Assembly (NCBI GenBank): GCA_021462855.1
Contig: JAJTXQ010000014.1
Span: forward strand, 42,042-106,041
Reading direction: 5' to 3'
Source of the DNA: Dehalococcoidia bacterium
GTDB lineage: Bacteria; Chloroflexota; Dehalococcoidia; DSTF01; JACRBR01
Length of the DNA: 64,000 nt
Shown: piece after piece, positions 41,851 to 63,313 of the stretch
Layout: every line of letters starts with the position of its first letter
Numbering within the stretch: position 1 is the stretch's first letter
Notes under the pieces: model-generated
Told to the model about the DNA's origin: nothing
Databases searched by the model: none
Seen by the model: only the letters and a program-made list of their open reading frames with translations
Made by a program: the position numbers and the translations under genes

Positions 41851-42531
41851 ATGAACAAGATCTTCGGTAAGCCTGACCTGACGTGGATCGTTAGCGCCGT
41901 CATCGCCTGCGCGCTGCTCGCCAGCTCCGCGCTCGTCCCGCTGTGGAAGATGGAGCTCGTCGCGCCGCAATACCCGGAGGGCCTCGTCATGAAGGCGTTC
42001 GGGTACAAGTTCGTCGACGACCCGGGCAGCCGGTACGATGATGTGCGCGAGATCAACGGCCTCAACCACTACATCGGCATGAAGCCGATCGAGGAAGTCT
42101 TCGAGATGCAGATGTTCCTGCCCGGCCTCGCCGCGCTGATCGTCGGCACGCTCGTGCTGAGCTTCGTGAAGTGGCGCCGCACGTGGGTGCGCGGGGTGCT
42201 CATCGCGGGCTTCTGGTTCATCCCGCTGTTCTTCCTCGCCGACCTGCAGGCATGGCTGTACTACTACGGGCACACCATGGACCCCGAAGCCGCGCTCAAC
42301 ACCGGCGACTTCACGCCAAAGGTGATCGGCACGACGAAGGTGTGGAACTTCCACTCCGAGAACAGCGTCGACATCGGCTTCTGGCTGATGGTCATGGCCG
42401 CCCTCGTCATTACGTTCGTACCGCTGTCGGTACGGCTGTTCCGCCGCCTGCGCGCCGCGTCTCCCTCAAACCGGCGCGCAGAGACGGCGGGCCGCGCCGC
42501 AAGCGTCGGCAGCATGAGCGGAGCGCGATAA
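41851..42531 (+). CDS. polytopic membrane protein, NosB-like (clade II nos accessory)
   Basis: 226 aa, 5-6 TM, immediately after nosZ as nosB is in clade II clusters. Family assigned by position and topology only. Confidence 0.55.
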   Translation: MNKIFGKPDLTWIVSAVIACALLASSALVPLWKMELVAPQYPEGLVMKAFGYKFVDDPGSRYDDVREINGLNHYIGMKPIEEVFEMQMFLPGLAALIVGTLVLSFVKWRRTWVRGVLIAGFWFIPLFFLADLQAWLYYYGHTMDPEAALNTGDFTPKVIGTTKVWNFHSENSVDIGFWLMVMAALVITFVPLSVRLFRRLRAASPSNRRAETAGRAASVGSMSGAR

Positions 42532-57910: not shown

Positions 57911-58052
57911 CCGCGGCACGCGCCCGCCTGGTCCGATCGCACCATTTCGGCGCGCCGCACCCGCGCGCTACGCTGTCCTCGGTAAAGTTCTCGTAACTTG
58001 ACCGTGCCGCGCGCCGGAGCGTACGGTACATGAAACTTAGCCGGAGGCTACG

Positions 58053-59405
58053 ATGCGGGTGCGTGTGTTCGAAGTCCTGGAGGAGCGCGGCCAGAAGCAA
58101 CGCTGGCTCCTCGCCGAGCTCGAACGCCGCGGCTACCGCATCAGCGAGGGCTACCTCTCCCAGATCAAGGCCGGCTCGAAGCAGCCCGGCCGCCAGTTCA
58201 TCGACGCGGTGTGCGACATCATGGGCATGCCGGAGCACGAGCTGTTCATCACGCAACGCGAAGGAGGAGCGAGCAGCATGGCAGGAAAGACCGCCGCAAC
58301 GACACCGGCACGAGCGCGGAAGAAGGACGGCAAGGGCAAGATCAACGTCGCCATCATTGGCGTCGGGAACTGCGCGTCGTCGCTCGTGCAGGGCCGCTAC
58401 TTCTACCGCGACGCGCGCGATGGCGAGGTCATCCCCGGCATCATGCACGCCACGCTCGGCGGCTATCACATCAGCGACATCAACTTCGTCGCGGCGATCG
58501 ACATCGACGCCAACAAGGTCGGCAAAGACCTCTCCGAGGCGGTCTTTACCGAGCCCAACAACACCTTCAAGTTCAGCGATGTGCCCCACCAGGGCGTCCG
58601 CGTGTCACGCGGGATGACGCACGACGGCCTCGGCAAGTACCTCTCGACGGTCATCACCAAGGCCACCGGCCCCACCGATGACATCGTCCGCCTGCTGAAG
58701 GAGACCGAGACCGACGTCGTCGTCAGCTACCTCCCCGTCGGCTCCGAGGAAGCGACGAAGTGGTACGTCGAGCAGGTGCTCGCGGCCGGCTGCGGTTTCG
58801 TCAACTGCATCCCGGTGTTCATCGCGCGGGATCACTACGGCTACTGGCCAAAGCGCTTCCGCGAGGCCGGCGTGCCGATCGTCGGCGACGACATCAAGTC
58901 GCAGGTCGGCGCGACTATCGTCCACCGGGTGCTGACGCGCCTGTTCCGCGAGCGCGGCGTCCGCCTCGACCGCACGTACCAGCTGAACTTCGGTGGCAAC
59001 ACCGACTTCCTCAACATGCTCGAGCGCGAGCGCCTCGAGTCGAAGAAGATCTCGAAGACCGGCGCCGTCACTTCGCAACTCGACTACGAACTGCCCGCGT
59101 CCGACGTCCACGTCGGTCCCTCGGACCACGTGCCGTGGCTGCAGGACCGCAAGTGGTGCTACATCCGCATGGAGGGCACGACGTTCGGCAACGTCCCGCT
59201 CAACGCCGAGGTCAAGCTCGAGGTCTGGGACAGCCCGAACTCCGCCGGCGTCGTCATCGATGCCATCCGGTGCTGCAAGATCGCCATGGACCGCGGCATC
59301 GCCGGTCCGCTCGAAGGGCCATCGGCCTACTTCATGAAATCGCCGCCGACGCAGTATGCTGACGATGTCGCGCGCGACATGGTGGAGCAGTTCGTAGCGG
59401 GATAA
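58053..59405 (+). CDS. ino1: myo-inositol-1-phosphate synthase (bacterial/archaeal type) with an in-frame N-terminal XRE-type HTH extension; probable internal MIPS start at 58278
   Basis: Residues 1-75 look like a helix-turn-helix ([28 protein letters not shown]). From M76 (MAGKTAA...[19 protein letters not shown]) it is a canonical NAD-binding MIPS. GGAGG SDs precede both ATG 58053 and ATG 58278; no stop lies between them. Confidence 0.8.
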
Positions 59406-59412
59406 AGGAATC

Positions 59413-60339
59413 GTGCTCGATCGGATCGTCTACTGGCTCTTCCGGCTGGCGATCCTCGTGACACGGCCGCTGCCCCTGCGGCTCGGATACTGGTTCGGCG
59501 AGCGAGTGGCGCTGCTCTGCTACTGGCTGGTCTCCCCGCGTCAGCGGCGCGCCCTCAACGCCAACCTCGCCCACGTGCTCCGGAGCGACGATCACCGCTA
59601 CGTGGACGCCGTCGCCCGGCGCAGCTTTCGCAACTTCGGCAAGTACGTCATCGACTTCATCCACTACCCGCTCATGACGCGCGGCGAGGTGCGGCGGCGC
59701 CTCAAGTTCGACCAGTTCCCGGAACTCGACGAGGCGGTCGCCGCCGGCCGCGGCGTGCTCATCGTCACGATCCACTTCGGCAACTGGGACCTCGGCGCGG
59801 CCGCGCTGGCGGCGCACGACTATCCAATCAACGCCATCGCCGAGTCCTTCCGCTACCGGCCGATGGACGACCTCGTGCAGGGTTCGCGCGCGAAGCTCGG
59901 GATGCGCGTCATCGGCCACGACCGGCTCGGGCCGACGGTATTTCGCGCGCTGCGCAACGGCGAGCTGCTCGCCATGCTCGTCGACGTGACCAACGACGCA
60001 CACCACCGGCTCGAGGTCGACTTCTTCGGCGCGCCGGCGCTCGTCTCGTCCGCACCGGCGCGCATCGCGCTGCGCACCAACGCGTGGGTAGTGCCCGCCG
60101 TCGTCATCCGCGGCCCGGACGACGATCTCGACATCCGCCCCATCATCGACACGTCGCTCGGCGGCTTTGCTCCGACCGGAGACGAGCCGCGCGACATCGC
60201 CGAGCTCACACGGCTGATCATGGCATCCCTCGAGCGGACGATCCGCCGCTACCCGGAGCAGTGGTTCATCTTCCGGCGCCTCTGGGGCCGCGCGGCCGCG
60301 CCCGCGCGCCGCGCCGGGGCCATCGCGGAGGGTGCGTGA
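59413..60339 (+). CDS. lysophospholipid acyltransferase (LPLAT/HtrB-PatA-like) 1
   Basis: LPLAT superfamily pattern (FGNWDLG, HHRLE region). Located between ino1 and a PimA-like GT4, as patA sits beside pimA in mycobacteria. Confidence 0.7.
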   Translation: MLDRIVYWLFRLAILVTRPLPLRLGYWFGERVALLCYWLVSPRQRRALNANLAHVLRSDDHRYVDAVARRSFRNFGKYVIDFIHYPLMTRGEVRRRLKFDQFPELDEAVAAGRGVLIVTIHFGNWDLGAAALAAHDYPINAIAESFRYRPMDDLVQGSRAKLGMRVIGHDRLGPTVFRALRNGELLAMLVDVTNDAHHRLEVDFFGAPALVSSAPARIALRTNAWVVPAVVIRGPDDDLDIRPIIDTSLGGFAPTGDEPRDIAELTRLIMASLERTIRRYPEQWFIFRRLWGRAAAPARRAGAIAEGA

Positions 60340-61277
60340 TTAGCGTCCCGTTCCCCCGGCCGCGACTGTGGAAGTACTACCTGATGGTCATCGTCATCAA
60401 CACGATCGGCCGCATGCCGCTGCGATGGCGCTACGGCATCTCGCGCATCGTCAGCGACCGCATCTACGACTGGCGCAAGTCGGTGCGCGAGGCGACGCGC
60501 AGCAACGTGCGCCACGTGCTCGGTCCCGGCGCGAGCGAGGATGAGGTCGACCGCATCGCTCGCCAGTGCGCGCGCAACACGGGCCGCTACTACGCCGACG
60601 TCGTCGGCATGCACCGCATCAACGTGCGCCGCTTCTTCGAAAATGACCTGGTGCTCGAAGGCCTCGAGCATGTCACGCAGGCGCAGGCGCGAGGCCACGG
60701 CGTGGTGCTCGCGTCGGCGCACTACGCCAACCCCGAGTTCGCCGTCCAGGCGCTCGCCGCGGCCGGTATCGAGGTGTTCGCGCTCGTCGAGCCGCTGAAC
60801 CCGCCAGAGCTCGGCCGCCTGATGTGGAACCTGCGCAACGTCCACGGCCACCGCTACGAGCCGGTGAGCTTCAGCGCCGTGAAGCACGCGATGGAGTGGC
60901 TGCGCAACTGCGGCGTCGTCGCGATCCTGGTCGACCGCGACATCCAGAAGCGCGGGATCGAAATCGAGTTCTGCGGCGCGCCAGCGCGCTTCCCCACCGG
61001 CGCCATCGACCTGGCGCTGCGCACGAACGCGGTCGTCGTCCCGGGCTGGGTGCGCCGCATCGGCGAGTTCAAGGTGCACGCACGCCTCGGCCCGGCAATG
61101 CCGCTCGTGCGCACTGGCAACAACGAGGAGGACGTGCGCGTCAACACGGCGTCGCTGCTCGCCCTCTTCGAGCAGCACCTGAAGTCCGACCCGGGCCAGT
61201 GGAGCGTGCTCGACCGCATCTGGCCCGACGACGCGTCCGCGACGCCCGCGCCGTCCGAGACCGCCGCCACGCACTGA
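60336..61277 (+). CDS. lysophospholipid acyltransferase (LPLAT/HtrB-PatA-like) 2, paralog
   Basis: Same fold signature (ASAHYANPE, VDRDIQKRG). GTG 60336 overlaps the upstream TGA (GTGA). Confidence 0.7.
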   Translation: MISVPFPRPRLWKYYLMVIVINTIGRMPLRWRYGISRIVSDRIYDWRKSVREATRSNVRHVLGPGASEDEVDRIARQCARNTGRYYADVVGMHRINVRRFFENDLVLEGLEHVTQAQARGHGVVLASAHYANPEFAVQALAAAGIEVFALVEPLNPPELGRLMWNLRNVHGHRYEPVSFSAVKHAMEWLRNCGVVAILVDRDIQKRGIEIEFCGAPARFPTGAIDLALRTNAVVVPGWVRRIGEFKVHARLGPAMPLVRTGNNEEDVRVNTASLLALFEQHLKSDPGQWSVLDRIWPDDASATPAPSETAATH

Positions 61278-61361: not shown

Positions 61362-62156
61362 GTGGGCACAGCCGACCTCCACATCCACACGCGCTACGGC
61401 GACGGCATGGCCACCGTCCCGGAACTGCTCCGTTATGTCGCGCAGCGCGGCGGCATCGATGTCATCGCCGTCACCGAGCACGACACCCTGCGCGCCGCCG
61501 GCGAAGCCCGCGAGATGCATGCGCGCGGCGATTACCCCTTCGGGCTGGTCACCGGCATGGAAGTGACCACGCTCGACGGCCACCTCCTCGCGCTGTTCAT
61601 CGACGAGCCCGTGCCGAGCTTCCGCCGCATGGAGGAGACGCTCGTCGCCATCCACCGCCTCGGCGGCCTGGCGGTCGTGCCCCACCCGTTGTCGTGGCTC
61701 ACCCGCAGCGTCAGCGCGAAGGTGCTCGACCGCATCGCCGCCATCGGCAACGACGCCGTGCACTTCGACGCGATCGAGGAGTACAACCTCTCCCCGGCCG
61801 GCCGTGTGACGTCGGCCCGCGTGCGCCGCCTCAACCGCGAGCGATTCCACCTCCCGGCGGTCGGGTCGAGCGACGCGCACTTCCTGCAGGCGATCGGCAG
61901 CGCCCTCACGTCCTTCGAGGGCACGACGCCCGACGACCTGCGCCGTGCCATCGCGGCCGGCACGACCGCGGGGGCCGCGGGGCGCGCGCCCCGCATGTCC
62001 GAGCTGGGATACCGCAACATCGCGTTGCAGCAGTGGCGCGGCATGATGGCGACGCCGCGCAACATGGGCTGGGCGCCGACGATCCGCAGCTTCATCATCA
62101 GCCGCGCGCGTCACCGCCCCGCGCCCGGCGCCGCCCCGGAGGATCCCGCCCGGTGA
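61362..62156 (+). CDS. PHP-domain metal-dependent phosphoesterase
   Basis: ADLHIHTRYGDG (HxH) and VTEHD motifs of the polymerase/histidinol-phosphatase (PHP) fold; GTG start. Confidence 0.65.
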   Translation: MGTADLHIHTRYGDGMATVPELLRYVAQRGGIDVIAVTEHDTLRAAGEAREMHARGDYPFGLVTGMEVTTLDGHLLALFIDEPVPSFRRMEETLVAIHRLGGLAVVPHPLSWLTRSVSAKVLDRIAAIGNDAVHFDAIEEYNLSPAGRVTSARVRRLNRERFHLPAVGSSDAHFLQAIGSALTSFEGTTPDDLRRAIAAGTTAGAAGRAPRMSELGYRNIALQQWRGMMATPRNMGWAPTIRSFIISRARHRPAPGAAPEDPAR

Positions 62157-63313
62157 AGGTCGCGCTCGTTTCGCCCTACGACTGGTCGGTGTCCGGCGGC
62201 GTGAACAACCACATCGCGCCCCTCGCGGCGGAGTTCGTGCGCCTCGGCCACGAGCCGCACATCGTCGCCGCCGGCGCGAAGGCCGCCAAGCCCGGCATCT
62301 GCCCCATCACGACGATCGGGCGGCCGATCCCGCTGCGCGTCAGCGGCTCCGTGGCGCGCATCACGCTGTCCCTGCGCGTCGCCGGCCGCGTGCGCAAGTT
62401 CCTCGAGGAGCACGACTTCGACATCGTGCACGTGCACGAGCCGTTCATGCCGCAGCTGCCAATCCAGTTCCTGCGCTACTCGACTGCGGTGAACGTCGGC
62501 ACGTGGCATGCGGCGCGCGAGTCGAACTTCGTCTACCTCTACGGCCGCCGCCTGATCAAGCGCTGGGCCACCAAGCTCGATGGCAAGATCGCCGTCTCCT
62601 CGGCCGCGGACAAGCACGTGCAGAAGTACTTTCCCGGCTACTACAACATCATCCCGAACGGCGTCGATGTCGAGCACTTCGCACGCGTCGCCGCCCCGCT
62701 GCCGGAGTTCGAGGACGGCAAGCTCAACGTGTTGTTCGTCGGGCGCCCGGAGAAACGGAAGGGGCTGAAGTACCTGGTCCGCGCGTTCGTCGGTGTGCAG
62801 CGCGAGGTCCCCGACACGCGCCTGATCGTCGTCGGCGCCGGCAAGTTCGACCGGTACGAGGCGGCCGTCCGCAACGCCCGGCTGCAAAACGTGCGCTTCC
62901 GCGCCTACGTGCCGTTCGATGAGTTGCCGCGCTACCCCCATACGGCGCACGTCTTCTGCGCGCCCAATACCGGCTTCGAGAGCCAGGGCATCGTCCTGCT
63001 GGAGGCGATGGCGGCCGGCATGCCGATCGTCGCGTCGAACATCGACGGGTTCGCTGGCGTGCTCACGCACGGCGTCGAAGGCCTGCTCGTCACGCCCGAG
63101 GATGCGCCGGCGCTCGCCAGCGCGCTCGTCGATCTGCTGCGCGATCCCGCGCGCCGCCAGGCGATGGGCGAGCGAGGCCGCGAGCGGGCGCAGCACTACA
63201 GCTGGGACCGAGTCAGTCAGCGCGTGCTGTCCTACTACGAGCGGCTCATCTACGAGCGCCGCATGCTCGAGCGCGAGCAGGGCGCCGCCGCCGCCGATCC
63301 CGTCGTCAGCTAG
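62153..63313 (+). CDS. GT4 family glycosyltransferase, PimA-like (phosphatidylinositol mannosyltransferase-like)
   Basis: VKVALVSPYDWSVSGGVNNHI N-terminus and EAMAAGMPIVASNIDG (E-x7-E region) are GT-B GT4 hallmarks. GTGA overlap with the PHP gene. Confidence 0.8.
   Translation: MKVALVSPYDWSVSGGVNNHIAPLAAEFVRLGHEPHIVAAGAKAAKPGICPITTIGRPIPLRVSGSVARITLSLRVAGRVRKFLEEHDFDIVHVHEPFMPQLPIQFLRYSTAVNVGTWHAARESNFVYLYGRRLIKRWATKLDGKIAVSSAADKHVQKYFPGYYNIIPNGVDVEHFARVAAPLPEFEDGKLNVLFVGRPEKRKGLKYLVRAFVGVQREVPDTRLIVVGAGKFDRYEAAVRNARLQNVRFRAYVPFDELPRYPHTAHVFCAPNTGFESQGIVLLEAMAAGMPIVASNIDGFAGVLTHGVEGLLVTPEDAPALASALVDLLRDPARRQAMGERGRERAQHYSWDRVSQRVLSYYERLIYERRMLEREQGAAAADPVVS

Follow-up and report, generated by a model that had tools for sequence, protein, structure and literature searches.

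A single gene in a 64,000-nucleotide stretch of DNA from a Dehalococcoidia bacterium (contig JAJTXQ010000014.1 of assembly GCA_021462855.1, forward-strand positions 42,042 to 106,041; 69% GC), hereafter the window, joins a helix-turn-helix (HTH) domain of the XRE type to myo-inositol-1-phosphate synthase (MIPS). The long open reading frame (ORF; 58053-59405, + strand) encodes 450 amino acids in the order HTH, linker, MIPS, with no stop ahead of the MIPS part, and an in-frame TAG at 58038-58040 leaves ATG 58053 as the one start from which the HTH can be translated. The HTH takes up residues 1-68 (58053-58256, +), and residues 69-96 (58257-58340, +) are a flexible Lys/Arg/Ala-rich linker that contains a second Shine-Dalgarno (SD) sequence and start codon. 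The SD of the long form, GGAGG at 58043-58047 (+; anti-SD duplex energy -9.5 kcal/mol), lies 5 nt ahead of ATG 58053. The internal GGAGG at 58263-58267, inside GAAGGAGGAG (58260-58269, +), lies 10 nt ahead of the in-frame ATG 58278, and from there a short ORF (58278-59405, +) would give free MIPS of 375 amino acids. An initial annotation of this DNA had described both the in-frame join without an intervening stop and a GGAGG ahead of each ATG, and these elements are all in place. The preferred reading, to which we give a probability of roughly 0.68 from what the sequence offers, is that this gene specifies an autoregulatory enzyme-repressor and, by internal initiation, the free enzyme, at the head of a lipid operon.

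The enzyme part is readily recognized. Residues 97-448 match inositol-3-phosphate synthase (TIGR03450, 2.8e-162) and residues 286-394 match the Pfam family Inos-1-P_synth (PF01658; 125.3 bits vs a gathering cut-off of 27, E 1.4e-36). The score of 539.9 bits missed the trusted cut-off of 638 bits for TIGR03450, the equivalog of mycothiol-type INO1 ('mycothiol_INO1'), which makes the protein a member of the family outside that equivalog. The 375-residue short form matched Mycobacterium tuberculosis Ino1 (1GR0, 367 amino acids) end to end (E 4e-146, a 65%-class match), with short-form residues 19-375, which run from residue 94 of the long form to its end, aligned to residues 13-367. The motifs GVGNCASS (N-terminal Rossmann), LNFGGNTD and SKKISKT are visible in that alignment, and 375 amino acids is the canonical length of a bacterial Ino1. 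The MIPS domain of the long ORF is thus, as judged from these alignments, complete and intact.

The initial annotation had placed an XRE-type HTH at residues 1-75, and this was correct, as fold prediction, structural comparison and a family profile agree. AlphaFold2 modelled the HTH as a five-helix bundle (pLDDT, the predicted local distance difference test, 87.6) with helices at residues 5-11, 16-25, 32-40, 47-57 and 61-64. When this model was compared with the PDB using Foldseek, the top 50 matches were all XRE-family domains (CylR2, TP901-1 CI, SinR, DdrO, ClgR), and among them CylR2 gave template modelling scores of 0.77/0.86 and a root mean square deviation of 1.2 Å. A profile built from 14 family sequences and searched against the PDB found ClgR (5woq, 6e-4), SinR (9e-3) and EspR. 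Additionally, the nearest stand-alone relatives of the HTH (P0164, P0167) exceed the Pfam HTH_31/HTH_3 thresholds, the cluster representative P0066 has a precomputed PF13560 match, and the orthologue from Sorangium carries the UniRef name 'HTH cro/C1-type domain-containing protein'. The ratio of non-synonymous to synonymous substitution rates (dN/dS) was 0.23 in the HTH core and 0.21 in the enzyme, which indicates that the HTH is translated and under purifying selection like the enzyme. In the full-length AlphaFold2 model the HTH was again confident and residues 69-93 were disordered (pLDDT about 31-34). On these models, the N-terminal 68 residues are an XRE/Cro-C1-type HTH held on a flexible basic tether of about 25 residues, and the part of the linker from Met76 on is the counterpart of the basic tail with which stand-alone Chloroflexota MIPS begin.

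For comparison, loci were collected in three sets: species-representative genomes with the HTH (L001-L010), 76 metagenome loci with the HTH (L081-L156) and 70 loci of non-fused Chloroflexota MIPS (L011-L080). With the window included there were 87 HTH-bearing loci, made up of 80 in-frame MIPS fusions, six loci that run off the contig, one that is frameshifted (L123) and no stand-alone HTH gene.

Two dyads precede the gene. O1 (57981-58003) is a 23-bp candidate operator of the HTH, GGTAAAGTT-CTCGT-AACTTGACC; it is the only match in the window, where none would be expected by chance. Its right arm holds a -35-like TTGACC (57998-58003), and a -10-like TACGGT (58022-58027) follows 18 nt past this, within O2. 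O2 (58020-58042), which emerged from an alignment of 30 loci, is an imperfect 9-5-9 dyad, CGTACGGTA-CATGA-AACTTAGCC, that covers the -10-like element, the likely transcription start and the leader, and ends 10 nt before ATG 58053. The two centres are 39 bp apart. The dyad consensus is GGTnAAGTT-N5-AACTTnACC, with the core half-sites AAGTT/AACTT 10 bp apart, and the 30 aligned loci, Sorangium among them, read GGTaAAGTT.tCgTAACTTGAc-N17/18-TA..GTaCA.gAAAcTTAACc. At least 13 of the 16 arm positions were matched upstream of 47 of 76 fused loci, as opposed to 0 of 69 non-fused MIPS loci. The distance from the start was mostly 67-86 nt, in a few loci 32-44 or 117 nt, and about 300-330 nt where an ORF is inserted. 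We infer from this arrangement that O1 and O2 may be operators of the HTH that overlap the -35 and the -10/+1 regions, and autoregulation through these dyads seems somewhat more probable than its absence.

The upstream region holds other elements. The inserted ORF, found in L002, L084, L093, L094 and L096 between the dyad block and the HTH-MIPS gene, is about 75 codons long and would encode a protein resembling a two-helix membrane protein. A different palindrome, CTGGTCCGATCGCACCAT (57929-57946), stands about 50 bp upstream of O1 in the window. Its family consensus, ATGGT-N8-ACCAT, was present with at least 9 of 10 arm matches in 25 of 75 fused loci vs 1 of 69 non-fused loci. Its distance ahead of the HTH start is 110-141 nt (about 125-133 nt in L008, L082 and L104, for example), rising to 172 nt in two loci and to about 355-380 nt in those with the inserted ORF; the palindrome is possibly the site of a second regulator. 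A small hairpin spanning the first SD (TAGCC-GGA-GGCTA, 58038-58050) was also considered and was dropped, as it is not conserved in other loci.

The alternative that fares best against the proposed autoregulation is that both isoforms are made and the HTH is no autoregulator. It would act instead at other DNA sites or on the nucleoid, through protein contacts or on other genes, and the dyads would be promoter elements or sites of another factor. The conserved block does contain the -35-like and -10-like elements; as the block from O1 to O2 is the promoter itself, its conservation is in part promoter conservation, and the right arm of O2 could be a feature of the leader RNA. The conservation of the unrelated ATGGT-N8-ACCAT palindrome likewise suggests that other factors probably act here. 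However, the dyad symmetry reaches well past the promoter hexamers, with GGTnAAGTT mirrored by AACTTnACC, and the dyad occurs twice with the same geometry. It is also missing from the promoters of the non-fused Chloroflexota MIPS genes, and Sorangium, whose downstream operon is different, has it too. We therefore regard this alternative as unlikely.

The second start codon is conserved along with the fusion that contains it. An in-frame start is present in the linker of 79 of the 80 fused loci (77 ATG, one GTG and one TTG), and at the protein level the internal Met is swapped only for Val or Leu. The SD ahead of it has a median anti-SD duplex energy of -9.0 kcal/mol, and 89% of these sites reach -8, a level attained by only 0.5% of the 422 in-frame ATGs found elsewhere, within the MIPS domains of the same genes. 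The value in the window is -12.2 kcal/mol, and the spacing from SD core to start is 5-13 nt across the internal starts. The codon usage of the window gene points the same way. With 90% GC at third codon positions, the gene writes its internal SD in the rare A-ending codons GAA GGA GGA (Glu70-Gly71-Gly72); just 4 of its 43 Gly codons are GGA, two of them in the internal SD and one in the SD of the next gene. This last one is Gly450, whose codon together with the stop (59400-59412) forms GGATAAAGGA, the likely SD of the gene that starts at GTG 59413. Across the family the linker residues at the internal site vary (EGG, EGE, KGEK, ERKQ, QEAP), yet the DNA that encodes them forms a purine-rich SD every time. 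Divergent clades have the start 3-10 codons ahead of the sequence INVAIIG, vs 17-49 elsewhere, and the SD shifts along with it. The internal SD is stronger than that of the first start, for which the family median is -5.9 kcal/mol, a value that depends on our choice of first start codons, and a stronger internal SD would be in keeping with abundant enzyme and scarce regulator. The predicted fold of the RNA around the internal ribosome-binding site (58215-58320) was no different from that of shuffled sequences (z = 0.07), which gives no sign of an RNA structure that hides or exposes the site. Taken together, these comparisons suggest that the internal start is very probably functional.

Existing annotations are divided between the two starts. 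One NCBI record, MBF6599762.1, has 380 amino acids and begins exactly at the internal Met, whereas another gene caller gives the same protein 452 (P0014), and among the orthologues P0014, P0136 and P0141 the calls diverge overall (452 amino acids with the HTH included vs 380 and 354 at NCBI). Start calls are thus inconsistent family-wide, with 354 or 380 amino acids at NCBI and about 450 elsewhere, and because the pipelines disagree on the gene start the HTH is hidden in many public records. One Dehalococcoidia metagenome-assembled genome (MAG; L005, 6052-6054) has a TGA in place of the codon for the invariant Trp18 of the HTH, with the internal SD, the ATG and the MIPS all undamaged. Either the TGA is a sequencing error, or the HTH has been knocked out naturally and MIPS has to be expressed from the internal start.

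Another explanation for the gene structure is a plain domain extension, in which only the long protein is made and the internal SD and ATG go unused, either as a relic of the ancestral start or as a by-product of encoding Glu-Gly-Gly, three further residues and Met. Any ribosome initiating at 58053 has to carry on to the MIPS stop. In alignments the internal Met falls at the N-terminus of the stand-alone MIPS of Chloroflexota, among which a similar basic tail is common, and this coincidence with the ancestral start makes a relic the natural null expectation. Additionally, one to three members (L130, P0120, P0124) are without an obvious internal start. A relic would be expected to decay, yet the start and its strong SD have been kept at frequencies far from those of the control ATGs. 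The SD is preserved at the nucleotide level and in rare codons despite the varying linker residues, and SD and start have been relocated jointly in other clades. SD-like motifs are generally depleted within bacterial genes (PMC5100845), which also counts against an extension, and we consider this explanation quite unlikely. The initial annotation had proposed two products, HTH-MIPS and free MIPS, and had set against them the case of orthologues that are fused and lack the internal SD. The comparison supports the two products, as the orthologues carry the fusion together with the internal SD, and fusion and internal start were kept together in 79 of 80 loci.

The fusion itself is found well beyond the window. 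The long ORF protein is identical to a database protein from a 408,912-bp JGI metagenome contig (P0011), and its closest relatives are from Dehalococcoidia and other Chloroflexota MAGs. A full-length search, clustered at 90% identity, listed 120 clusters with 73-100% identity to the window protein; these are 436-485 amino acids long and contain HTH and MIPS, the exception being one N-terminally truncated fragment of 393 amino acids. Sorangium is among the carriers (WP_237245127.1; AUX29479.1). In a neighbour-joining tree, 115 fused MIPS domains formed one clade as against 68 non-fused Chloroflexota MIPS. When the HTH hidden Markov model was run against six-frame translations of the 70 non-fused Chloroflexota MIPS loci, no relative of the HTH was found within 6 kb. 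A HMMER profile search of 1.84 billion representatives found no close stand-alone homologue either: at E <= 1e-21 every match was a fragment or a frameshifted piece of the fusion, a gap to 2e-13 came next, and the closest XRE proteins that truly stand alone are only distantly related to the fusion HTH (E about 1e-7). It is therefore practically certain that the HTH-MIPS fusion is real and conserved, and by these comparisons it is old, obligate and widespread in uncultured Chloroflexota/Dehalococcoidia and in Sorangium.

Two side observations concern possible variants of this architecture. The metagenome fragments P0157 and P0158 have an HTH of the fusion family and after it KINVAIVGLGVGAEFIPIYQ..., which opens like a Rossmann domain but does not go on into MIPS, and there is no Pfam match; these fragments may have a different oxidoreductase partner or come from chimeric contigs. 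In the non-fused locus L013 (1-434) the frame upstream of MIPS has no stop before the contig ends, and its translation includes ...IPAKWHAQLLTLAREHGIDLSPGDL...; this could be a different N-terminal extension or a mere open frame in GC-rich DNA.

The initial annotation had offered a recent stop-codon loss as the origin of the fusion. Such a loss, or an assembly artefact, joining a separate small regulator gene to ino1 at this locus can be dismissed as extremely improbable: small regulators adjoining ino1 do exist in other bacteria and some database entries are short HTH-only fragments, but these entries are cut off at contig ends or are frameshifted pieces that run on into MIPS, no stop separates HTH from MIPS in 80 of the 81 resolvable loci (the remaining one is frameshifted), those loci and all 120 listed clusters are in-frame fusions despite linker indels, the fused MIPS clade is monophyletic, and no orthologue that stands alone was found either close to non-fused MIPS genes or among the 1.84 billion representatives.

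The gene is followed on the same strand, with short gaps, by four genes. The first two encode Lip_A_acyltrans acyltransferases, one HtrB/PatA-like (59413-60339, +; PF03279, 7e-41; syntenic in 10 of 10 fusion-bearing genome loci) and a second at 60384-61277 (+), assigned by Pfam and synteny. These are followed by a PHP-domain phosphoesterase (61362-62156, +; PHP_C, 4e-12; syntenic in 9 of 10 genome loci) and a PimA-like glycosyltransferase of family GT4 (62153-63313, +; Glycos_transf_1, 4e-35). The downstream gene order as a whole is conserved in 9 of the 10 genome loci, and in Sorangium the HTH-MIPS gene stands alone. The order resembles that of the actinobacterial genes for phosphatidylinositol mannosides (PIMs), and the operon probably makes phosphatidylinositol-based, PIM-like glycolipids. 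Speculatively, the PHP phosphoesterase might serve this pathway as its phosphatidylinositol-phosphate phosphatase. No gene for a phosphatidylinositol-phosphate synthase (CDP-alcohol phosphatidyltransferase) was found directly after the operon; what follows there is a GDSL-lipase/dockerin-like ORF in convergent orientation.

The model that we favour for this locus, an enzyme-repressor and a free enzyme from one gene, would work as follows. One mRNA, read in one frame, would yield the 450-residue HTH-MIPS from ATG 58053 and the 375-residue plain enzyme from the internal SD and ATG 58278. The long form would bind O1 at the -35 and O2 at the -10/+1 of its own promoter and so repress the operon of ino1, the two PatA/HtrB-like acyltransferases, the PHP phosphoesterase and the PimA-like GT4. 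The oligomeric enzyme body, a dimer or tetramer, would supply the dimerisation that the 68-residue HTH lacks, the short form would account for the bulk of catalysis, and the internal start would allow much enzyme to be made with little regulator. The enzyme body may also couple DNA binding to the abundance of the enzyme or to its ligand state (glucose 6-phosphate, NAD(H) or inositol phosphate), though ligand sensing by the MIPS body is a tentative suggestion that we consider less likely than not. Mixed oligomers of long and short subunits are possible but speculative. An extended form of the model, which is more doubtful still, treats the MIPS oligomer as a ligand-sensing scaffold in which the mix of isoforms would set the HTH valency. 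At least two long subunits would be needed per dyad, four could bridge O1 and O2 by means of their 25-residue linkers, and occupancy of the dyads would report enzyme abundance, isoform ratio and possibly occupancy by glucose 6-phosphate, NAD(H) or inositol phosphate.

Several points weigh against this model or parts of it. On the single sequence the Pfam match to HTH_31 stayed below threshold (18.2 bits vs a gathering cut-off of 27, E 0.003), and further HTH matches, to HTH_26 and to the NCBIfam model ClgR (9e-5), were sub-threshold as well. The MIPS core was of low confidence over residues 302-392 of the full-length model, and because of this no contacts between the HTH and the enzyme are proposed. 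The use of both starts is argued from their conservation. In L133-L156, the clade that diverges most, the dyad is weak or takes another form. Lastly, a simple sigma-70 consensus scan called no promoter here, so the promoter assignment relies on the conservation of TTGAC-N17/18-TAnnGT in the 30 aligned loci.

Known systems provide precedents for the separate parts of this arrangement. Bifunctional enzyme-repressors, or 'trigger enzymes', include BirA (biotin ligase/repressor) and PutA (proline dehydrogenase/repressor), and in enterobacterial NadR an XRE-type HTH is combined with nicotinamide mononucleotide adenylyltransferase and ribosylnicotinamide kinase in a protein whose enzyme body oligomerises and senses ligand. 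The family described here has its DNA-binding domain and its enzyme in one polypeptide throughout. It is like NadR in having an XRE/Cro-C1-class HTH N-terminal to a metabolic enzyme of the pathway that would be regulated. It differs in that the enzyme is MIPS, there is no sequence kinship beyond the HTH superfamily, and a ligand response is established for NadR alone; to our knowledge, NadR has no conserved internal start from which a form without the HTH is made. BirA and PutA likewise have the DNA-binding domain covalently on the enzyme and a palindromic operator over the promoter of their own pathway operon, which at this locus is a candidate. However, BirA uses a winged HTH and PutA a ribbon-helix-helix where the protein here has an XRE domain, their switch is experimentally established whereas that of HTH-MIPS is predicted from comparison, and neither is a two-isoform system.

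Pairs of proteins made by in-frame internal initiation are familiar from ClpB-95/80, IF2 alpha/beta and CheA-L/S. Long and short isoforms of AerR also arise in this way (PMC6199135), and genome-wide surveys of internal initiation have been made by Ribo-RET (bioRxiv 10.1101/520783) and by riboproteogenomics (PMC11005335). The HTH-MIPS genes resemble these pairs in their conserved in-frame start with an SD at functional spacing, from which a truncated protein without the regulatory N-terminal domain would be made. The difference is that here the skipped domain is a DNA-binding one and the predicted short product is a full metabolic enzyme.

In Corynebacterium and Mycobacterium, ino1 is activated by IpsA, a separate inositol-sensing regulator of the LacI type (PMC3899939). 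The window enzyme is a close homologue of M. tuberculosis Ino1 over the full enzyme length and, like it, heads an inositol-lipid pathway, but the actinobacterial regulator is a separate LacI-family protein whereas the candidate regulator here, an XRE HTH, is part of the enzyme polypeptide itself. The databases hold the fusion proteins, labelled simply MIPS, and no description of an HTH-MIPS fusion was found in the literature searched, which returned only general papers on IpsA and internal initiation. As Sorangium has an orthologue, the model is testable in a cultured organism.

The regulation of bacterial inositol synthesis is known mainly from actinobacteria through IpsA, and in the organisms described here the enzyme itself appears to carry the regulator. 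The two start sites would be a built-in setting of the ratio of regulator to enzyme, as the gene architecture points to. If the proposed model is true, MIPS would join the short list of enzyme-repressors with NadR, BirA and PutA, and the family would provide a clean, evolutionarily validated functional internal start in poorly studied phyla. If the scaffold form of the model were also true, inositol-lipid synthesis would be under ratio-metric feedback from a self-contained device, and the locus would show a way, not described before, to build a transcription factor from a housekeeping enzyme.

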